Assembly (NCBI GenBank): GCA_050125095.1
Contig: JASFEA010000068.1
Span: 1-17,669 of the forward strand
Reading direction: 5' to 3'
Length of the DNA: 17,669 nt
Origin: a bacterium
GTDB lineage: Bacteria; Arandabacterota; Arandabacteria; Arandabacterales; JALGWA01
In this document: one piece after another, positions 495 to 17,669 of the stretch
How positions within the stretch are numbered: the stretch's first letter is position 1
How the letters are laid out: every line of letters starts with the position of its first letter
Translations under genes and position numbers: made by a program
The notes under the pieces: generated by a model
Databases searched by the model: none
What the model was told of the DNA's origin: nothing
What the model saw: only the letters and a program-made list of their open reading frames with translations

Positions 495-791
495 TCACTT
501 CCCCATCTCCTCTTCGACTTCCTTGGCGCCTTCTGCGTAGTATCGCTGCTCATCCGGTGCCAGCTCGTGAAGCAGCCGGAGGAACTCCCCGGCGTGAACA
601 CGCTCTTCATTCGCAATGTCCTCGAGCACGTCGATTGCCAGCTTGTTGTCCGTTGACTCGGCGAGCTGCATGTAGAGCTGAACCGCTTCGTACTCCGCGG
701 CAATCATGAAACGGATTGCCCGGATGAGTTCTGCCTCCGTCAGCTTCCTGTCGTTAGCCAGGCCTGAGAACGACGATGAGAATTCCGGCAT
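495..791 (-). CDS. Small ferritin-like (rubrerythrin / encapsulated-ferritin-like) diiron protein, 98 aa
   Basis: MPEFSSSFSG...ELIRAIRFMIAAEYEAVQLYMQLAE...DIANEERVHAGEFLRLL has the ExEAxxLY and EExxH ferritin-superfamily motifs. A strong RBS (AAGGAGG) precedes the ATG at 791, so the 1100 start in the ORF track is too long. Confidence 0.88.
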   Translation of the reverse strand: MPEFSSSFSGLANDRKLTEAELIRAIRFMIAAEYEAVQLYMQLAESTDNKLAIDVLEDIANEERVHAGEFLRLLHELAPDEQRYYAEGAKEVEEEMGK

Positions 792-883
792 GGTTATCCT
801 CCTTCCCCTTGAGAATGCGGAGCGAGAATACAAACAGGCCTCTGCATCGCTTTTACCTATTGAGAGCGCCAGAAGCGAGTATG

Positions 884-913
884 ATTCTAGCGTGAGCCGA
901 TTATGTGTGTCAA
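884..913 (-). promoter_or_regulatory. Sigma70-type promoter for the ferritin-like gene
   Basis: Minus strand TTGACA (913-908), 18-nt spacer, TAGAAT (889-884). Confidence 0.6.
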
Positions 914-1144
914 GACGGGCGGTTCTATACACCAGGCGCCTTGCGGTACGACTGGACGGCCTGAAGCCCGACAGATGTCCCTCGGTATTGACAGTTCTGC
1001 GGTTCACGGGTAAGTATGGATTGCAGAGTGACACGCTCAGAGAGAAGCGGCAACCATGAGATCGGTAATTGACAGGACCAGTATGAGCAGCGGGCCGCAT
1101 ACTAATGCATTCGGGGATAAAGATGTGGGAGGAGGAGAATCCCG

Positions 1145-2186: not shown

Positions 2187-2264
2187 GTTGCCCAAATATA
2201 CGGCCTCACCCCCGGCATCCGGAGTGGTTCGGCAGGTAGAGGGGCAGGTGGGCCTGCCCGGCCG

Positions 2265-2906
2265 TTAGATTTGCTTTACAAGCGAGTCCACAGTCAGTAC
2301 ATACGCAAACGCATAGGCCAGGTTCTTGAGCGTGGCCACCTGGAACTCGGGCTCGGATGTGGCCGTTGCATCGGCCAGGAAGAAGACTCGGAAGTCGCGC
2401 ATGAACGCGTCCCGGGCGGTCGTCTCGCAGCAGATATTGGTGAGAATACCCGTGATGATGAGGTCTGTCACACCCATTCCCAGTAGCGCGGTCTCCAGGC
2501 CGGTGTTATGGAAGCCGCTGTATCGATGCTTCCAGATGACCTCCTCGTCCTTGCGCGGCACCAGCGGCGCGTAGATCTCGGCGCCCTTCCTGCCCTTGAC
2601 CAGGCACCGGCCCTCCTTTATCTCGGGCCACCACTCGGCCGTCATGCCGCCGTCCACAGCGGGGTCCTCGTGTGCATGGCCGGTATAGACGACCGGGATA
2701 CCGGCCTTCCGGCAGGCCTGTATGACGCGTTTGACGTTGGGGACTATGTCGAGGGCGTTGTGGAAGAAGTCGCCGCCGCTCTCGGACAGGAACTCGTTCT
2801 GCATGTCGATCACGAGGAGGCAGGCCTTCTTCTTCCTCAGTGTCATCTTGTGGAGGTTGTAGGGCCCGATTTCACGCATCCACTCAGGTGTCTTATCAGT
2901 CCACAT
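2265..2906 (-). CDS. Isochorismatase-family cysteine hydrolase
   Basis: Catalytic D-K-C motifs: LLVIDMQNEF, WKHRYSGF, GILTNICCETTARDA. GAGGA RBS upstream. Confidence 0.93.
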   Translation of the reverse strand: MWTDKTPEWMREIGPYNLHKMTLRKKKACLLVIDMQNEFLSESGGDFFHNALDIVPNVKRVIQACRKAGIPVVYTGHAHEDPAVDGGMTAEWWPEIKEGRCLVKGRKGAEIYAPLVPRKDEEVIWKHRYSGFHNTGLETALLGMGVTDLIITGILTNICCETTARDAFMRDFRVFFLADATATSEPEFQVATLKNLAYAFAYVLTVDSLVKQI

Positions 2907-2932
2907 TCCCGGCTATCCTCTTTCAGGCAATA

Positions 2933-2960
2933 AAGATAACCCAAAGTCGCGGGATTTCAA
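2933..2960 (-). promoter_or_regulatory. Possible sigma70 promoter for the isochorismatase gene
   Basis: Minus strand TTGAAA (2960-2955), 16-nt spacer, TATCTT (2938-2933). Confidence 0.4.
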
Positions 2961-3072
2961 CATAGTTCTGATTACGCGGTATATGGGTCGGATAGAATAC
3001 ACCGCGGGACCTTGGATGTATGAAGCGTGCACTTCCCGGTCAGATGACCTTAATGAATTGATATTGCTTAGA

Positions 3073-3600
3073 TTATCTTCTCCGGGTCATCGGGCGGCCA
3101 CAGCAGATCAGTCTGCTGATACCCAGGCCTTCATTCGTTATGGCGACCTCGACGCCGCACAGAGCGCATGAATAGGTGGGCTTGGGTCTCATTATGGGCT
3201 TGGGCCTGGAAACCCTGCGCTTGGCCATAATGGTGGCCTTCTTGGTAGTCCCCTTCTTGCGGGCGGGCCTTTTCTTTGCCGTCTTTCGTTTGGCTGTCTT
3301 CTTCTTTTTGACGGTCTTCTTTCTGGCTGTCTTCCTCTTGACGGTCTTCTTCGCCTTCTTCCGGGTGGTCTTCTTCTTCGCCGGCTTCCGCCTGGCGGTC
3401 TTCTTCTTCGCCTTCCTGGCGGCTTTGCGCCTGGTGGTTTTCTTCTTGGCTACTTTCCGCCGCGCGGTCTTCCTCTTGGCGGTCTTTTTCCTCCCGGCGG
3501 TCTTGCGCGCAGGCTTCCGCTTGGTGGTCTTCTTGCGCGCGGTCTTCCTCTTGGTAGCCTTCCTACGGGTAGTCTTCTTCTTGCTCCTTCGGACTGCCAT
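3073..3600 (-). CDS. Histone H1/Hc2-like Lys/Arg-rich protein with C-terminal desulforedoxin-like Cys4 metal-binding domain (175 aa)
   Basis: About 120 aa of K/R/T/A repeats with no acidic residue (KKTTRRKA, RKKTAKRK...), then YSCALCGVEVAITNEGLGISRLICCGRPM. ATG at 3600 has a GGGGGTGA RBS and a consensus promoter just upstream; the 3669 start overlaps that promoter. Confidence 0.8.
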   Translation of the reverse strand: MAVRRSKKKTTRRKATKRKTARKKTTKRKPARKTAGRKKTAKRKTARRKVAKKKTTRRKAARKAKKKTARRKPAKKKTTRKKAKKTVKRKTARKKTVKKKKTAKRKTAKKRPARKKGTTKKATIMAKRRVSRPKPIMRPKPTYSCALCGVEVAITNEGLGISRLICCGRPMTRRR

Positions 3601-3641
3601 GAACTCACCCCCTTCTGCTTGAACCCGCTTAAGCCGAAACA

Positions 3642-3669
3642 AGTATATTAGGCCTTTGATTTGTGTCAA
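3642..3669 (-). promoter_or_regulatory. Near-consensus sigma70 promoter for the histone-like gene
   Basis: Minus strand TTGACA (3669-3664), 16-nt spacer, TATACT (3647-3642), in an AT-rich divergent intergenic region. Confidence 0.7.
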
Positions 3670-3695
3670 GATTTTCTTTAAAATGCTGATAGAAT
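3656..3695 (+). promoter_or_regulatory. Divergent overlapping promoter(s) for the 3717 gene and cysE
   Basis: TTGATT (3656-3661), 17-nt spacer, TAAAAT (3679-3684); also an extended -10 TGaTAGAAT (3687-3695). TAAGGAGG RBS before ATG 3717. Confidence 0.5.
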
Positions 3696-3716
3696 GAACA
3701 TATTAAGGAGGTTTGT

Positions 3717-5114
3717 ATGGATATGTCCTATTGCCGCGGGTGGGCGGCAGCTATCTTATTGATTTTAATGGTCTTAACTCTATTCGGGACATTTTCAGCC
3801 GGGGCCGAAGAGATGTATGAGAGGACCGGTACCGCAAAAGTGCTGGATGGGGTCGAGCCTTTCGAGCTCGACTATGACTCGGGGAACATGGGATTACATG
3901 CCCTGGCGTCATGTCTCAAGGCCACCGGGACCGTAAGCGGCTACTACACGCTGGTGGGGTTTTCCAGGTCGGCCTTCAAGTTCGTCTATGACAGCACCGA
4001 GGCATATGAACCCCTGAGGGACCTCTACCCTGTGGACGTGCTGAGCCAGGCCGCCAGGAACTCGGGCCATCCCGATTGCCACTGGGAGATGAATAAGTCC
4101 ATCGATGTGGTTAAGTCATTGATAAAGGGTGAGATAGACAACGGCCGACCCGTGATAGCCCCGTTTCTCAAAGACGACGCCTACCGCGGCTTCTTCATAA
4201 TTGTGGGATATGACTATGACAGGCACCTCTTCTACCTGCAGGGCGCGCTGGGGCCGGATTCGGCTTATGTAAGCGTGCCCATCCCCGAGTACTGGGACGG
4301 CCCCACGGCAAGCCCGGAGGGTTGGGCCAGGAATCCAGTCTTCTTGCTGGGCGAGGCGGTTGAGGAATTGGACAGACGTGGGGCGCGCGAGCGGAAATCG
4401 GTGAGAATGGGCATGCGGCTCTTCAGGGGAGGCGCGCTGGAGTACGGGACTCATCCGGGCGAGGGCCGATATATGGCTGTGCCGGGTCCTCACGAGGCCG
4501 CCTACGGCCTTCCGGCCTACGATGTGCTGTCGTGGGACGTGGAGAACGCCCCGATCCTGTCTGAAAGCGAAGGCGGCCAGGCGGTCAACTTCGGGTTCCT
4601 GTGGCGGGTGGACTCCCAGGTGGGCCAGCTCTGGCATGACAGGTTCCACGGGGCCAAGTATGTGCGGGGCATTTCGCGTTTCCTCCGGTTCGAGCAGAGG
4701 ATGCTTCTCGGCGAGATAACGGAGAACTATGAGAAAACGGCCGTCGACGCGCGGACGCTGAGGAGGATGTTCTGGAATCCCGTCCCCGACACCCTGGCGA
4801 ACGCGGACGATGTAATAACCTATATTGAGGATGAGGGGGCCATTGTCTACTGGGTCGGCCAGGTCGAAGGCTTCGCGCCCGACCTGGCTTCCCGCGGGCT
4901 CGAGACCCATGATACGCCGTGGGGGCCGGTAGTTGTGCTGGATTCGCCGTCGAAGCGGCTCAGGGCCAAGCTCCTGGTGAAGAGCATAGCTTCGCGGGAA
5001 AGAAACTCCTTGTATGTGATGAGGGATATTGCCGAGCATATAGGGAGACTGGCCCCCGATGCGTTAAGACAGAAAGACGAGACCGGGGAGAGTCAGGAAG
5101 GCGGGGGCGAGTAG
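3717..5114 (+). CDS. Secreted hypothetical protein with an N-terminal papain-fold (C39/BtrH_N-like) domain
   Basis: Signal peptide (AAILLILMVLTLFGTFSAGA-EE), strong RBS, and IKGEIDNGRPVIA...FFIIVGYD...LFYLQ resembling C39-like/BtrH domains. The CDS is secure; the family call is tentative. Confidence 0.6.
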   Translation: MDMSYCRGWAAAILLILMVLTLFGTFSAGAEEMYERTGTAKVLDGVEPFELDYDSGNMGLHALASCLKATGTVSGYYTLVGFSRSAFKFVYDSTEAYEPLRDLYPVDVLSQAARNSGHPDCHWEMNKSIDVVKSLIKGEIDNGRPVIAPFLKDDAYRGFFIIVGYDYDRHLFYLQGALGPDSAYVSVPIPEYWDGPTASPEGWARNPVFLLGEAVEELDRRGARERKSVRMGMRLFRGGALEYGTHPGEGRYMAVPGPHEAAYGLPAYDVLSWDVENAPILSESEGGQAVNFGFLWRVDSQVGQLWHDRFHGAKYVRGISRFLRFEQRMLLGEITENYEKTAVDARTLRRMFWNPVPDTLANADDVITYIEDEGAIVYWVGQVEGFAPDLASRGLETHDTPWGPVVVLDSPSKRLRAKLLVKSIASRERNSLYVMRDIAEHIGRLAPDALRQKDETGESQEGGGE

Positions 5115-5141
5115 CAGGGAACACCAGGGGAGGTGCTTGAG

Positions 5142-6293
5142 TTGGACAAGAGGCAGCTCGGAAAGGTATCAAGGAAGCTCGCCGGCATATGCCGCAAGAG
5201 CAAGTTCTTCAGGTGCGCGAGCCGTTATTCGGTGCCGTCCGACGAGTCGGTAAAGGAGATACTCGCGCTGTTCCAGGAAGTGCTCTTCATAGGGTACTTC
5301 GGTAAGCAGGACATTCCCGACTGGGACCTCGAGCCCCACCTGCACGTGCATATGTCGGAGCTATTCGATGCGCTCTCAAGCCAGATAGCCAAGAGCCTGG
5401 TGCATGAGTGCCAGCGCCCGAGGGAGGGCTGCGACCTCTGCCAGGCACACGGCGAGGAGAACGCCGCCGCGGTTATAGGCAAGATCCCCGAGATACGGCG
5501 GCTGTTGGAAGGCGACGTACAGGCGGCCTTCGATGGCGACCCGGCCGCCAAGAGCTTCGATGAGATCATATTCTCGTATCCGGGCCTCAGGGCCATAATG
5601 GTGCACCGGGTAGCGCATGAGCTCTATCTCCTGGAAGTGCCCCTGCTGCCTAGGATAATGTCGGAATACGCACATGCCATTACGGGGATAGACATACATC
5701 CGGGCGCCACCATCGGCAGGAACTTCTTCATCGACCACGGCACGGGCGTGGTGATAGGCGAGACCACGCTCATCGGCGATAACGTGAAGATCTATCAGGG
5801 AGTGACCCTGGGAGCGCTGAGCTTCCCCAAGGACGAGCGCGGCAACCTCTTAAGGGACATCAAGCGGCACCCGACTCTGGAGGACAATGTCACCGTTTAC
5901 TCGGGTACAACCATTCTCGGCGGTGACACGGTCATAGGGCGCGGCTCGACGGTGGGCGGCAATGTCTGGCTCACCACGAGCGTCCCGCCGGGGACCAAGG
6001 TGGTCATAAAGACGCCGGAACTCAGGATGAAAGGCGAACTCATCGGCCACGCAAGACCCGGCGAGAGCATGGTGGGCGTGCGGGCCGGCAAGTCGGGGCG
6101 AAAAGCTACGGCCGGAAAGCCGCGGCCTGAGAAGACGTCACGCAGAGCTGCAGGTAAGAAGGCTGCGGGTAAGAAGGCGACCGGGAAGAAGGCTGCGGGT
6201 AAGAAGGCGATCGGGAAGAAGACATCGCGAAGTACGGCAGGCGGGAAGGGATCCGGGAAGCCTGCGCGTAAGAGAACCGCGAAACGCAGATAG
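5142..6293 (+). CDS. cysE: Serine O-acetyltransferase (CysE/EpsC type) with Lys-rich C-terminal extension
   Basis: GDPAAKSFDEIIFSYPG, HRVAHELY, TGIDIHPGATIG, FFIDHGTGVVIGET, YQGVTLGA, KRHPTLED. TTG at 5142 lies 6 nt after GGAGGTG and is preferred over GTG 5133. Confidence 0.93.
   Translation: MDKRQLGKVSRKLAGICRKSKFFRCASRYSVPSDESVKEILALFQEVLFIGYFGKQDIPDWDLEPHLHVHMSELFDALSSQIAKSLVHECQRPREGCDLCQAHGEENAAAVIGKIPEIRRLLEGDVQAAFDGDPAAKSFDEIIFSYPGLRAIMVHRVAHELYLLEVPLLPRIMSEYAHAITGIDIHPGATIGRNFFIDHGTGVVIGETTLIGDNVKIYQGVTLGALSFPKDERGNLLRDIKRHPTLEDNVTVYSGTTILGGDTVIGRGSTVGGNVWLTTSVPPGTKVVIKTPELRMKGELIGHARPGESMVGVRAGKSGRKATAGKPRPEKTSRRAAGKKAAGKKATGKKAAGKKAIGKKTSRSTAGGKGSGKPARKRTAKRR
6147..6221 (+). repeat. 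Coding tandem repeat, 5 x 15 bp (A-x-G-K-K)
   Basis: gctgcaggtaagaag / gctgcgggtaagaag / gcgaccgggaagaag / gctgcgggtaagaag / gcgatcgggaagaag. Units 2-3 and 4-5 form a 30-bp repeat with a single mismatch. Confidence 0.9.
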
Positions 6294-10720: not shown

Positions 10721-11770
10721 ATGCAAATAGGCGCAAGAACCTTCAGAGTCGGATCGGGCCTCACGATTTTTCTGGCAATAAGCGTCGTGAGCGCCCTCGT
10801 CATCATAATCGCGACCGCCGACCCCGGGACATGGGCAAGCCTCAGGAGGATGAGACCGGGTTATATAGCGCTGGCCTCGGTGTTGATGGTCATACAGTGG
10901 TGCCTTAACGGCATAAGGTTCAGGATCCTGGTAAACAGCCTCGGCAACAATGTGAGTCTTCTTACCTCATTCAAGGCTTTCATGACCAACATATTCCTGG
11001 GGGCGGTGACCCCGAGCCAGACAGGGGGTGGGCCCATGCAGATCTACGTCCTCAGCAAGGCGGGCGTCCCGGTGTCGAAGGCCTTCGCCGGCTGCCTCAT
11101 GGGGGCCGTGCTCACTGTGATATGTCTTGTTTCCTCCGCACTCGCCGTGCTCCTCTCGAGCCCTGCCCTCAGGTCGGAGTTCGGCCCGCGCATGACCGGG
11201 ATACTGCTGGCCGCGGTTGTGGTGTTCGGCCTCCTGGTGCTGACTTTCGTGCTCTCGCTGACGCGCACGCGGGCGGTCAAGAGGCTCATCGGCCGGACGC
11301 TGCTTGCCGCCATGCGCGCCCTGAGGCTCGACCGGAGAATCGGGTTCACCAAGCGCGTCCTCGGTGGCGTGGACCAGTACAGGGAAAGCATGTCGGTGTT
11401 CGCAAGGACGAAGAAGTCGAAGCTCGTCGCCGCTCTCCTTATCACCATGGCCGCTATCTCCACCAATGCGCTTATCGCACCCGTGTTGCTGTCGGGTCTC
11501 AATATCGAGTACGACATAGCGACCATATACCCGGCGCAGTTCATTCTCTTCTTCATCGCCTACTTCGGCCCCACGCCCGGCGCGAGCGGCATCGCCGAGT
11601 TCAGCAACTTCTGGATCCTGACCACGCTCAGCATCCAGCCCAATTTGCTGGGCATCTACACCGTGCTATGGCGCTTCTTCACCATTTTCGTCGGGGTTAC
11701 CGTGGGCGGACTCATCGTGCTCTCGCTCCTGCCGCGCCGCAAAGAGCTGCCCGGAGCGGAATCTGTTTAA
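10721..11770 (+). CDS. Lysylphosphatidylglycerol synthase TM / flippase-like (UPF0104) membrane protein
   Basis: Polytopic hydrophobic protein with family motifs GAVTPSQTGGGP, PTPGASGIAE and LWRFFT. Confidence 0.88.
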   Translation: MQIGARTFRVGSGLTIFLAISVVSALVIIIATADPGTWASLRRMRPGYIALASVLMVIQWCLNGIRFRILVNSLGNNVSLLTSFKAFMTNIFLGAVTPSQTGGGPMQIYVLSKAGVPVSKAFAGCLMGAVLTVICLVSSALAVLLSSPALRSEFGPRMTGILLAAVVVFGLLVLTFVLSLTRTRAVKRLIGRTLLAAMRALRLDRRIGFTKRVLGGVDQYRESMSVFARTKKSKLVAALLITMAAISTNALIAPVLLSGLNIEYDIATIYPAQFILFFIAYFGPTPGASGIAEFSNFWILTTLSIQPNLLGIYTVLWRFFTIFVGVTVGGLIVLSLLPRRKELPGAESV

Positions 11771-11821: not shown

Positions 11822-12748
11822 ATGAAAATCGCAGATGATATCACCAAGCTGGTCGGGAACACACCGCTCGTGCGGATAAACAAGCTGGCTGAGGGGCTGC
11901 CGGGGAACATCGTCGCGAAACTCGAGTCTTTCAACCCGCTTTCAAGCGTGAAGGACAGAATCGGGGTAAGCATGATTGATGCGGCGGAGCGGCTGGGTGT
12001 CCTCAAACCCGGGATCACCGTGGTCGAGCCGACGAGCGGCAACACGGGCATCGGGCTCGCCTTCGTATGTGCGGCGAGGGGTTACAAGCTCATATTGACC
12101 ATGCCGGAGACCATGAGCGAGGAGCGGAAGAAGCTCTTGCTCGCGCTGGGGGCAGAGCTTGTGCTCACTCCGGGCGATAAGGGCATGAAGGGCGCGGTTG
12201 CTGCGGCAAAGGAGATCGCGGCGTCGGACCCGAGGACATTCACGCCCAACCAGTTCGGGAACCCCGCGAATCCGGCAATTCACCGGCAGACCACCGCCGA
12301 GGAGATCTGGGCGGACACGGACGGCCGGGTGGACGTGGTGGTCTGCGGCACGGGCACGGGCGGGACGGTAACGGGCGTCGGCGAGGGACTGAAGCAGAAG
12401 AAGCCGGGAATAAAGATAATAGCCGTCGAGCCCGCGGAGTCGCCGGTGCTGTCGGGCGGAAAACCGGGACCGCACAAGATCCAGGGCTGGGGGCCGGGAT
12501 TCGTGCCGGACGTCGTGAACCTGGACGTGGTCGATGAGATAATGAAGGTGAACTACGAGCAGGCGGCGGGGACGACGCGGAGGCTCGCTCAGGAAGAGGG
12601 GATATTCGGCGGTGTCTCCTGCGGCGGCGCCATGTGCGCCGCGCTTGAGGTCGCCAGGCGGGCCGAGAACAAGGGCAAGCTCATCGTGGTCATCCTGCCG
12701 GATACGGGCGAGCGTTATCTGAGCACCGACCTGTTCGGTATCGCTTGA
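11822..12748 (+). CDS. cysK: Cysteine synthase A (O-acetylserine sulfhydrylase)
   Basis: [23 protein letters not shown] (PLP Lys), [41 protein letters not shown]. Confidence 0.97.
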
Positions 12749-15178: not shown

Positions 15179-15246
15179 GTATATTGGCTGGTAATGTCCC
15201 GGGGTCTCGTTAGCGGGCCCCTCTTTTAATGGAAAGGTGGATAGAA

Positions 15247-17669
15247 ATGACGTCAAAGACCGCACTGGCGGCGTTCCTTGCCATCATGTTTGTCCCTTTG
15301 GCAGGGTTTGCCGATATTGTCACTCCCGAAGAGGCGACAGCCGTGGGAGAGAACTTCTTAGATCATCAGATTGAGGTACGGGGAGGATGGGGAGAGTCAC
15401 CCTGGGCCGAGGTGGCCGAGATCAGCGAGATCTGGAGGAATGACAGGCTGCTGGGTTACCACCTGTCGATCTCGCCCAGCGGCCATATCGTCGTTCCCAT
15501 TACGAGGGCCCTCACGCCGGTGAAGTCATTCTCCTATACCGAGGACTTCGTGACGGATTCAGAGGTGGGTTACTGGCAGCTCCTCAAGGACGCATTGGAG
15601 TATACGCTTATACAGATAGAAGAAAAGCAGGGGCCGCTCAATCTGCTTAAGGCTGCCCCGCAGCCGAGGGCGGTCGGGGACATCTGGGACTGGACGCTCG
15701 GCTCCAGCCCGCCCCCGCCCATGCTCACGACCGTGGGCCCTATTGTGATGACCAAGTGGGACCAGAGTTATCCGTGGAACCTCTTCTGCCCCGAGGGCGA
15801 CGGGGGGCGCACCATCGTTGGCTGCGTTGCGACAGCGGGCGCCCAGATCATGCGCTACTGGCGCCATCCCTCCTACGGCACGGGCAGCCATTCATACTAC
15901 TGGAACGGCGACCAGTCCTGCGGCGGCACGACGTCCGGCCAGATTCTGAGCGCGGACTTCGACCATCCGTACGATTACTGGAAGATGAAGAGAACGGCGG
16001 TGGCCTATGACTCGGTACAGGCCGCGGCAGCCTCATGGCTCTGCTCGGATGTGGGTATCGCATGGCAGATGGACTACGGGCGCTGCGGTTCGGGCGCATA
16101 CACGGCCAGGGGCCTTACGGTTTACCCGACGTGGTTCAAATATCTCGGCACGGTGGAGCGGCATAACCGGCCCGACTACCCGAGCAGGCAGGCCTGGTTC
16201 GACCTTCTTAAGGGCGAGTTCGAAGCCGACCCGCCGCGGCCCATTCACTACAGGATCAGCGGCCACTCCATAGTCTGCGACGGCTACATGGACGACGGCG
16301 GGCTGTACATTCATCTCAATTATGGCTGGGCGGGATCTTCGGACGGCTGGTACGCCGTTGACAGCCTGCACTGCACCTGGGACGGATGCAGCCCGGATGT
16401 GGAATACGCTCTGATAGGGATCGATCCGGGCGCGGATTTCATAGACGCGACGGCCGGGCCCGCAGGGGACGCGGCCGACACCTATGGCGTGGCATGGGGC
16501 GACTACAACGGCGACGGTTATCTGGATCTATACCTGTCCAATGATGGAACCGCCAACACGCTGCTGGAGGGCGACGGCACAGGCGGCTTCACCGATGTCA
16601 CGGCCGGGCCTCTCGGGGACACCGGCAGCGGCAGGGGCGTCGCCTGGGCGGACTATGACAATGACGGCGACCTCGATCTCTACATATGCAACACCTCGGG
16701 CGGTGCAAACAAGCTCCTGGAGAACAACGCGGGTGTCTTCACCGATGTAACCTCAGGCCCACTGGGCGATACCGGCAACTCCGAGGGCGTCGTCTGGGGA
16801 GACTTCAACGGCAACGGTTATGTGGACCTCTACATAGTCAATAACGGCGCTTCCAACAAGCTCCTGCTCAACTCGGGCGGCCTGTTCGCCGACGCCACCG
16901 CGGCGCCGCTCGGCGATACCGGCGCCGGATACAGCGCGGCGGCCGGCGACTATGACAATGACGGCGACCTGGATATCTATATAGTGAACTCGGGCGCGAA
17001 CGTGCTCCTGAGGAACGAGGGCGGCGGAGTCTTCACGGACGCCACGGCAGGGCCCCTGGGGGACACCGGGGACGGCCGCGCGGCGGCCTGGGGCGACTAT
17101 GACAATGACGAAGACCTGGACCTCTATATCGGCAATCACGGAGACAACGTTCTCCTACGCAACGACGGGGGCACATTCACCGACGTAACCGATACGCCCC
17201 TTTTCAATTCCAACGACGCCTTCGGGGTGGCCTGGGCCGACTACGAGAACGACGGCGACCTGGACCTTTTCCTGAATAACTCCTCCGGCGCCAACAGGAT
17301 ATTCAGGAACCTCGGCGGCGACGCATTCCAGAACATCACTGTGACGCCGCTGGGAGCGACCATCTCCGGAAAGGGAGTGGCGTGGGGTGACTACGACAAT
17401 GACGGTCTCTCCGATCTCTACGTAGCGAATTCAGGCGGGGCCAATTACCTCTACCATAACGAGTTCCAGCAGCGGCCGGACTATCTCAAGGTCAAGCTGG
17501 TGGGCGTCTATTCCAATGCCGCGGCGATCGGGGCGCGTGTGCGCGTCGTGGGCGGCGGTGAGGTGCAGGTGAGGGAGATCTCGGGCGGATCGGGCTATTG
17601 CTCGCAGAACTCCATGATCGCCGGTTTCGGCTTCGGGGACCTCGACACTGTTGACTCGGTTCAGGTGCT
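15247..17669 (+). CDS. Secreted C10-family (streptopain-like) cysteine peptidase with 7 FG-GAP/VCBS repeats and ASPIC/UnbV domain (3'-truncated by window edge)
   Basis: Manually translated; open from ATG 15247 (MTSKTALAAFLAIMFVPLAGFA-D signal peptide) to the window end. Prodomain, then KWDQSYPWN...VGCVATAGAQIMRYW (Cys codon 15823), GHSIVCDGY (His codon 16264), HLNYGW. Followed by WGDYDNDGDLDLY repeats and YLKVKLVG...SNAAAIGARV...GGSGYCSQNS. Confidence 0.92.
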   Translation, partial: MTSKTALAAFLAIMFVPLAGFADIVTPEEATAVGENFLDHQIEVRGGWGESPWAEVAEISEIWRNDRLLGYHLSISPSGHIVVPITRALTPVKSFSYTEDFVTDSEVGYWQLLKDALEYTLIQIEEKQGPLNLLKAAPQPRAVGDIWDWTLGSSPPPPMLTTVGPIVMTKWDQSYPWNLFCPEGDGGRTIVGCVATAGAQIMRYWRHPSYGTGSHSYYWNGDQSCGGTTSGQILSADFDHPYDYWKMKRTAVAYDSVQAAAASWLCSDVGIAWQMDYGRCGSGAYTARGLTVYPTWFKYLGTVERHNRPDYPSRQAWFDLLKGEFEADPPRPIHYRISGHSIVCDGYMDDGGLYIHLNYGWAGSSDGWYAVDSLHCTWDGCSPDVEYALIGIDPGADFIDATAGPAGDAADTYGVAWGDYNGDGYLDLYLSNDGTANTLLEGDGTGGFTDVTAGPLGDTGSGRGVAWADYDNDGDLDLYICNTSGGANKLLENNAGVFTDVTSGPLGDTGNSEGVVWGDFNGNGYVDLYIVNNGASNKLLLNSGGLFADATAAPLGDTGAGYSAAAGDYDNDGDLDIYIVNSGANVLLRNEGGGVFTDATAGPLGDTGDGRAAAWGDYDNDEDLDLYIGNHGDNVLLRNDGGTFTDVTDTPLFNSNDAFGVAWADYENDGDLDLFLNNSSGANRIFRNLGGDAFQNITVTPLGATISGKGVAWGDYDNDGLSDLYVANSGGANYLYHNEFQQRPDYLKVKLVGVYSNAAAIGARVRVVGGGEVQVREISGGSGYCSQNSMIAGFGFGDLDTVDSVQV
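16435..17460 (+). repeat. Seven FG-GAP/VCBS coding repeats (probable 7-bladed beta-propeller)
   Basis: W(G/A)D(Y/F)xxxxxxDL/I-like motifs start at 16495, 16645, 16795, 16942, 17089, 17233 and 17383 (spacing 144-150 nt). Most are preceded by FTDxTxGPLGDTG. Confidence 0.88.

Follow-up and report, generated by a model that had tools for sequence, protein, structure and literature searches.

The 17,669-nt contig JASFEA010000068.1 (assembly GCA_050125095.1; analysed over its full length and referred to here as the window) raises the question of what use a bacterium could make of a protein that joins a histone-like, almost purely basic tail to a small desulforedoxin-type metal site. Such a protein is encoded on the minus strand at positions 3073..3600. 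The source genome is assigned to Candidatus Eisenbacteria and comprises 3.35 Mb in 268 contigs, with a completeness of 91% and a G+C content of 60%. The architecture is undescribed and widespread and is built from two known modules, and the window protein carries its most extreme tail.

Overall organization and the polycationic tail

The coding sequence is complete, as judged from the list of open reading frames (ORFs), the translation and the orthologues. It runs on the minus strand from an ATG at 3600 to a stop codon at 3073–3075, encodes 175 residues, and is the sole gene in the interval 3073–3600. The protein (20.2 kDa, pI of about 12, net charge of about +81) consists of a polycationic tail (residues 1–141; 3178..3600), a desulforedoxin-type Cys4 domain (residues 143–172; 3085..3174) and a short RRR end (3076–3084), all on the minus strand. 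Neither a signal peptide nor a membrane segment was found in the 175-residue sequence.

The tail contains 51 lysines and 27 arginines (78 of 141 residues, 55%) and no aspartate or glutamate, the remainder being mostly threonine, alanine, proline and valine. Composition and autocorrelation define a (K/R)3-(T/A/V)2 pentamer rhythm, in which basic and small residues alternate as (+++oo)n; the autocorrelation of basic positions is 0.59 at a lag of 5 and 0.37 at a lag of 10, and the most frequent 5-mers are KRKTA, KKKTT and KKTTR. The underlying DNA consists of imperfect repeats of 15, 27, 30 and 54 nt. The whole-protein Atlas model is of low confidence, with a predicted local distance difference test score (pLDDT) of 0.53 and a predicted TM-score of 0.20. 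A preliminary description of this DNA had reported a basic N-terminal region of some 120 residues, more than half lysine and arginine, free of acidic residues and made of short K/R-T/A repeats; composition and repeats stand as reported, and the length is corrected to about 141 residues.

Hidden Markov models (HMMs) of histone-like proteins all scored the protein below their cut-offs, with 28.3 bits against 40 for PF07382 (Hc2), 20.1 against 135 for NF038052 and 20.3 against 80 for NF038053, and only one of 20 family members reached E≤0.001 with the HC2 model. On these scores, the likeness of the tail to Hc2 and H1-like proteins is judged to be compositional and not a matter of family membership.

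The desulforedoxin-type Cys4 domain

The C-terminus of the protein reads ...YSCALCGVEVAITNEGLGISRLICCGRPMTRRR. It carries two cysteine pairs, C145-x2-C148 (codons 3166–3168 and 3157–3159, spanning 3157..3168) and the vicinal pair C166-C167 (3100..3105), both on the minus strand and defined by sequence and alignment, and these four cysteines are invariant in all 20 aligned family members. The Pfam model PF06397 (Desulfoferrod_N) matches the whole protein with 33 bits against a cut-off of 23 (E 4.5e-8) and the last 43 residues with 37.4 bits; 19 of the 20 family members also match it at E≤0.001. The corresponding NCBIfam model TIGR00319 gives 23.5–27.7 bits, under its stricter cut-off of 36. A profile built from the 20 members aligns with the desulforedoxin of Desulfovibrio gigas (PDB codes 1cfw and 1dxg) over 33 of its 36 residues, with an E-value of 7.6e-5, and also matches three desulfoferrodoxins in the same search of PDB sequences. 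Matches to PRDM9 zinc fingers in that search were discarded, being repeated partial KPY-C-x2-CG matches in which no stretch passes alone.

An AlphaFold2 model of the last 50 residues, computed from a 20-sequence alignment, has a mean pLDDT of 76. Its six highest-ranking Foldseek neighbors are N-domains of superoxide reductases (SOR) together with desulforedoxin 1dxg, with 2ji1, 1dxg and 1dfx among the top matches, at probabilities of 0.99–1.00 and root-mean-square deviations of 1.6–3.1 Å over 34–37 columns. For 1dxg the TM-score normalized by the target is 0.78, with a sequence identity of 40%. The domain can thus be assigned, by HMM, ligand set and predicted fold, to the Desulfoferrod_N family, which bears out the desulforedoxin-type C-terminus named in the preliminary description.

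The spacing of the cysteines sets this domain apart. The canonical desulforedoxin (Dx) spacing is CXXC-X15-CC, as given in the SORGOdb paper (PMC3116461), and in the window protein 17 residues separate C148 from the vicinal pair. The X17 spacing arises because of a two-residue insertion, which HMMER places after the G-x-G turn, within the conserved loop G-[LM]-G-x-x-R-L. A set of 175 distinct single-domain sequences was gathered with the family profile and hence is not an unbiased sample; in it, X17 is found in all 168 that have a basic tail, and X15 in four classic Dx or desulfoferrodoxin sequences, which lack the tail. As far as the gathered sequences go, tail and knuckle appear to be retained together, X17 and the basic tail always co-occurring. 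Since the canonical X15 spacing is not present, the domain is filed as a distinct subfamily of the fold and not as desulforedoxin proper.

The protein stops three residues past this domain and has no superoxide reductase domain, as neither PF01880 (no match) nor TIGR00320 (16 bits against 146.9) recognized it. A classical desulfoferrodoxin is encoded elsewhere in the genome, on another contig (C19).

Conservation in Eisenbacteria

With the last 50 residues as query, 12 of the 15 further genomes in the order gave matches with E-values of 1e-15 to 1e-27, and the family profile matched at E≤1e-22 in 13 of 18 genomes of the phylum. The five genomes without a profile match are three incomplete ones, at 57, 73 and 83%, and two from a sister family whose completeness is 96%. 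Each of the 13 orthologues consists of a basic N-terminal tail, 43–141 residues long with 41–57% lysine plus arginine and at most one acidic residue, and a Cys4 domain with the consensus Y-[ST]-C-x-L-C-G-V-E-V-...-G-L-G-I-[SN]-R-L-x-C-C-G-x-P-M.

Within the genus of the window, the 33-residue domain is identical in all five sequences, and the proteins have total lengths of 127, 140, 168, 175 and 175 residues. Their tails share 72–75% identity with that of the window protein in three of the four comparisons, with insertions and deletions, and 99% in the fourth, to the near-identical contig L056. The combination of an invariant domain with variable tails means that selection holds the domain sequence, the tail composition and the expression signals, and not the tail length. 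Because the architecture, the promoter and the ribosome-binding site (RBS) recur in 12 other genomes, this is a real, selected gene and not a chance architecture.

Expression signals

A consensus scan and the alignment of orthologous loci locate the promoter at 3642..3683 on the minus strand. It comprises an A/T-rich block (TTTTAAAGAAAATC, 3683–3670), a -35 element TTGACA (3669–3664), a 16-nt spacer and a -10 element TATACT (3647–3642). With 11 of 12 consensus positions, TTGACA-16-TATACT upholds the near-consensus promoter that the preliminary description had ascribed to this gene. The 1-kb region contains three promoter-like sites against 0.6 expected from shuffled sequences, and the A/T block combined with the -35 element occurs only once in the 3.35-Mb genome. 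When the upstream 130 nt of the 13 orthologous loci are aligned, the block TAAAG-AA--CTTGACA ... AATATACT is invariant in all of them, as is the core GG-GGTG of the RBS (GGGGGTGAG in the window; 3604..3612, minus strand, 3 nt 5' of the ATG); further upstream of the promoter block the sequences are unrelated. The consensus promoter, the A/T-rich upstream block and the GGAGGTG-type RBS, invariant across 13 genomes and set in DNA of 60% G+C, are signs of strong expression.

Several other readings of the region were considered and set aside. The plus-strand ORF at 3176–3622 (148 residues, hydrophobic) is an antisense reading of the repeat, as the Cys4 domain, the RBS and the promoter all lie on the minus strand. 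A TTG start at 3669 would give 198 residues and would translate the promoter; the ATG at 3600 is preferred, as it is the one preceded by the conserved RBS. The 256-residue database form P0002 likewise translates the promoter, its true length being about 181 residues. A conserved operator in the spacer between -35 and -10 was also rejected: a GGAATTCC-like sequence occurs in family f2, but there is none in the genus of the window. The idea of a leader RNA was dropped as well, as the 174-nt downstream region folds no better than shuffled sequences (z -0.61). No intrinsic terminator was predicted 3' of the gene on the minus strand.

Public gene calls for the family often place the start too far 5', as in the records P0002, P0137, P0003 and P0066, so that promoter and leader are translated ('...KENLD..S..NIL...RGGE.M') and the lengths are inflated.

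A wetland metatranscriptome (run X1) yielded two 151-nt contigs that match the window without differences, at 2987–3137 and 3110–3259. They cover the 3' part of the gene and 86 nt past the stop codon, an untranslated downstream stretch (2987..3072, minus strand) that shares an RNA-library contig with the gene; the rest of 2200–5200 was uncovered. The run held 8% of the sampled words, and, being two assembled contigs of read length for which DNA carry-over is possible, they hint weakly at transcription and reveal neither its level nor a habitat.

The wider family

Against a set of 5.8 billion proteins, a search with the family profile that scored 8000 candidates returned at least 156 clusters at E≤0.001, with proteins of 27–116 residues. 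A profile search of longer proteins added two matches among the 7997 word-sharing candidates scored, a scope in which long fused forms may be missed. A single-sequence search of the 5.8-billion set with residues 131–175 found one near-identical protein only, and the last 50 residues gave 20 matches at E≤0.001 among 1.84 billion representatives, a low number because the query is short. To judge from these sequences, the family occurs in many uncultured bacteria. One record comes from a Zixibacteria genome. Look-alike clusters in the Atlas are attributed to Nitrospirota, WOR-3, Aminicenantota, Planctomycetota, Chloroflexota and Thermodesulfobacteriota; their scores to the window protein are 0.85–0.88, below 0.9, and they are taken as leads only. 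The family has no agreed name, and its automatic labels conflict (S14, RPC12/RpoP, Elf1, DamX, 'desulfoferrodoxin-like iron-binding protein').

The basic region, whose presence in homologues the preliminary description had singled out for checking, is found in all 13 Eisenbacteria orthologues and in 125 of 130 single-domain family proteins, with acidic residues at 23 of 4346 tail positions. Tails are usually 15–28 or 40–47 residues long, and those of the window protein and its near-twin are the longest. Short forms of 51–66 residues, from Ignavibacteria, have a second basic stretch after the domain, which often ends in a fifth cysteine. Such a cysteine at or near the C-terminus of the second stretch (...KRRC, ...RKRVC) is present in 28 of the 130 members (e.g. 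P0031, P0040, P0061, P0125 and L027–L029) and absent from the window protein; it could be a fifth ligand or a site of disulfide cross-linking. Seven further proteins of 83–88 residues (P0009–P0013, P0018 and P0019), from the search of the representatives, consist of two Dx-like domains in a row, have CCN where the family has CCG, lack the basic tail and look like a separate branch of the fold.

Genomic context

In Eisenbacteria the gene order is fixed and consists of aconitase, a hexapeptide transferase, a divergent gene for a secreted 465-residue protein, the basic-tailed gene and, on the same strand, a gene of the isochorismatase family. The divergent gene (3717–5114, plus strand, in the window) encodes a protein whose N-terminal hydrophobic segment resembles a signal peptide and which belongs to no Pfam family, Peptidase_C39_2 being a weak match (E 0.22). 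Its position is kept in the 15 other Eisenbacteria loci in which it is present, and its promoter region must overlap that of the basic-tailed gene. A 201-residue ORF at 495–1100 (minus strand), whose residues 133–190 match Rubrerythrin with 27.5 bits against a cut-off of 22.8, lies 2 kb downstream of the basic-tailed gene on the same strand; no family is assigned to its first 130 residues.

The short forms were located at 21 Ignavibacteria loci. At five of these (L036, L037, L040, L042 and L043) the gene is co-directional with, and directly 5' of, a gene for a rubrerythrin of about 150 residues without a rubredoxin domain, and at four of the five it is also directly 3' of AhpC, with gaps of 26–162 nt. 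Ferritin-like, rubredoxin-like and thioredoxin-reductase-like genes are nearby. The five loci probably represent a peroxide-stress operon in the order (rubrerythrin, rubredoxin-like,) AhpC, basic Dx-like gene and 150-residue rubrerythrin. The relevant segments include L036:856-3159, L040:455-3155 and L043:383-2207, of which L040 has the ferritin-like and thioredoxin-reductase-like genes. At the remaining 16 loci the neighbors are unrelated (iPGM at three, dockerin/GAF at eight and others at five). No ribosomal or translation gene stands beside any family member with annotated neighbors.

Elsewhere in the window, a plus-strand gene at 10721–11770 encodes a homologue of LPG_synthase_TM, the transmembrane region of lysylphosphatidylglycerol synthase (131 bits), and adjoins a PALP (cysteine-synthase-type) gene at 11822–12748. 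A plus-strand ORF at 15229–17667, which runs off the end, contains a Peptidase C10 (streptopain-type) domain followed by at least six FG-GAP repeats and an ASPIC/UnbV domain.

Comparison with known proteins

The domain shares its Pfam family with D. gigas desulforedoxin (1dxg, 1cfw) and with the N-domain of desulfoferrodoxin, or 2Fe-SOR (1dfx, 2ji1, 1vzg). In common with desulforedoxin it has the CxxC...CC ligand set with its vicinal pair, the glycine after CxxC and the G..M after CC. It differs in having X17 instead of X15, in the family-specific loop G-[LM]-G-[IV]-[ST]-R-L, in being basic rather than acidic, and in the 141-residue polycationic tail attached to it. Unlike desulfoferrodoxin, the protein lacks the SOR catalytic domain with its Fe(His)4Cys site.

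On the side of the tail, Hc2 is developmentally expressed, whereas the gene described here has a constitutive-looking consensus promoter. The tail shares with Hc2 (HctB; PF07382, NF038052) and with the Burkholderia-type H1-like proteins (NF038053) a low-complexity composition of lysine, arginine, alanine and threonine, a pentamer rhythm and the absence of acidic residues. It also shares with Hc2 a variation of length through repeat number between close strains, which for Hc2 is reported in the abstract of PMC2848022. However, the scores lie below all the HMM cut-offs and give no evidence of common descent, and Hc2 is without a Cys4 domain.

The nearest described design is that of DdbA (SCO2075) of Streptomyces. 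Its N-terminal H1-like domain binds and condenses DNA in vitro, its C-terminal domain is DksA-like, and loss of the gene renders the cells sensitive to oxidative stress, as reported in the abstract of PMC3643593. Both proteins combine a basic H1-like N-terminal tail with a small C-terminal module. In DksA proteins this module is a Cys4 zinc finger. DdbA, however, belongs to a different phylum and has a DksA-like coiled coil and zinc finger where the window protein has a Dx knuckle; a Pfam search of the latter gave no DksA family match. Another Dx domain tethered to a DNA-binding element occurs in the HTH-Dx-SOR class, 19 proteins with a helix-turn-helix (HTH) N-terminal to the Dx domain according to SORGOdb (PMC3116461). 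Those proteins have a SOR catalytic domain and a folded HTH, whereas here the candidate DNA binder is a disordered polycation and there is no enzyme domain. Full-text searches of literature outside the subscription journals yielded no description of a protein in which a histone-like or lysine-rich tail is attached to a desulforedoxin-type domain, and the architecture that the preliminary description could not place among characterized proteins is, within this scope, apparently new.

Proposed function and alternative explanations

Our best explanation is a tentative one, which we hold to be nearly but not quite as likely to be right as wrong: the protein would be an abundant, sequence-non-specific coat of nucleic acid, most likely of the nucleoid DNA, of the histone-H1/Hc2 functional type and with a metal-folded node. 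The disordered 141-residue tail, with about +78 charges, would lie along the phosphate backbone, neutralizing and coating it in the manner of H1, Hc2 and the H1-like part of DdbA. The 33-residue C-terminal knuckle would fold about a single Fe or Zn ion, bound as in desulforedoxin by CxxC and the vicinal CC, and would provide the tail with a small folded node. Desulforedoxin forms a homodimer, and by the same token the node may join two tails, in which case one particle could bridge two duplexes. Because the node would exist only while four thiolates hold the metal, oxidants or metal loss could loosen it, a possible form of redox gating. We infer nucleic-acid binding, the choice of metal, dimerization, abundance and redox response from the features described above. 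A complex prediction with two copies of the last 50 residues and the family alignment, run without controls, scored 0.29 against a mark of 0.42 and speaks neither for nor against dimerization.

Several observations weigh against this proposal. RNA, polyphosphate and acidic proteins are equally good ligands for a polycation. The Eisenbacteria neighbors carry no hint of a chromatin function, and the genome also has four HU/IHF-family genes, so there is no gap to fill; replacement of HU is ruled out by the same four genes. The gene is missing from both 96%-complete genomes of the sister family f3, and the short forms occur in just 21 of the 201 Ignavibacteria-class genomes sampled, a patchiness which indicates that the protein is dispensable. 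The Foldseek E-values are weak (0.08–0.3) because the domain is tiny. Finally, the two-residue insertion sits in the loop before CC, so that the protein need not share the dimer geometry of desulforedoxin.

An unlikely but not negligible alternative is a redox protein of oxygen or peroxide defence, in keeping with the iron redox centers of known Dx domains. The Fe(Cys)4 site would pass electrons to rubrerythrin, peroxiredoxin or superoxide reductase, and the basic tail would serve for docking to acidic partners or would tether the carrier to DNA, keeping its protection local by a Dps-like logic. The five Ignavibacteria loci upstream of rubrerythrin, four of them downstream of AhpC, point in this direction, as do the ferritin-like, rubredoxin-like and thioredoxin-reductase-like genes near them, the rubrerythrin-domain ORF in the window and the classical desulfoferrodoxin of the genome. 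Those five loci, however, come from related genomes and are not independent, and such a context is missing at the other 16 Ignavibacteria loci and at all Eisenbacteria loci. Moreover, a tail of 141 residues and +78 charges far exceeds what docking needs, and the usual electron carrier is a compact protein of acidic or neutral character. The redox link drawn in the preliminary description finds some support in the Ignavibacteria operons, as read from gene order, and none in the Eisenbacteria context; its tie between nucleoid compaction and iron or redox state remains an inference.

Less likely again is an association of this small basic metal-knuckle protein with RNA or the ribosome. It would then be an accessory ribosomal protein or RNA chaperone, comparable to zinc-ribbon ribosomal proteins or retroviral nucleocapsid knuckles, and its tail would have expanded in Eisenbacteria. 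The ancestral-looking forms of 51–66 residues, basic on both sides of the Cys4 knuckle, resemble ribosomal proteins in size, charge and strong RBS; the constitutive-looking consensus promoter would suit an abundant housekeeping product; and JGI labels some members 'ribosomal protein S14', 'RPC12/RpoP' or 'Elf1', although these are automatic names only. Against such a role, no ribosomal family of Pfam or NCBIfam (bL31, bL32, bL33, bL36, uS14 and bS18 types) matches, no annotated member lies in a ribosomal or translation operon, the patchy occurrence (21 of 201 Ignavibacteria; two near-complete sister-family genomes without the gene) is unlike that of a core ribosomal protein, and a protein fitted into rRNA would not be expected to vary so freely in the length of its tail. 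The least probable explanation is that the protein binds or condenses with another polyanion (polyphosphate, extracellular DNA or acidic envelope polymers), or has no important function, its tail being drifting repeat DNA. Charge alone does not specify a ligand, and the tail does evolve fast through repeat gain and loss; yet a domain, a promoter and an RBS that do not vary across an order speak for selection, and an extracellular role would need lysis, as there is no signal peptide or membrane segment.

The coating of nucleic acid by the tail, which we favor, can be extended to a metal- or redox-gated cross-linker of chromatin, a proposal that we regard as quite improbable as it stands. Paired Fe(Cys)4 knuckles with polycationic arms of about 140 residues would bridge and condense DNA, and oxidation or iron loss would dissolve the node, switching the nucleoid between bridged and merely coated states. 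If this were true, oxygen-sensitive bacteria would possess a direct switch from iron and oxygen to chromosome structure, and the protein of the short-tailed relatives would be co-expressed with peroxiredoxin and rubrerythrin.

Biological significance

Bacterial chromatin is usually framed in terms of HU, IHF, H-NS and Dps, together with a few H1-like proteins of cultured pathogens. The product of the gene described here, which is order-wide and strongly promoted in an uncultured phylum, combines a polycation of the H1/Hc2 type with a Cys4 metal site capable of redox chemistry. Should the tail prove to bind DNA and the knuckle to sense iron or oxidants, anaerobes would have a simple new means of coupling the state of the nucleoid to oxygen stress; should the protein instead be bound to RNA or the ribosome, it would represent a new family of accessory ribosomal proteins or RNA chaperones. 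In both cases a structural or nucleic-acid role would be added to the Dx fold, which is otherwise known only from electron-transfer proteins.

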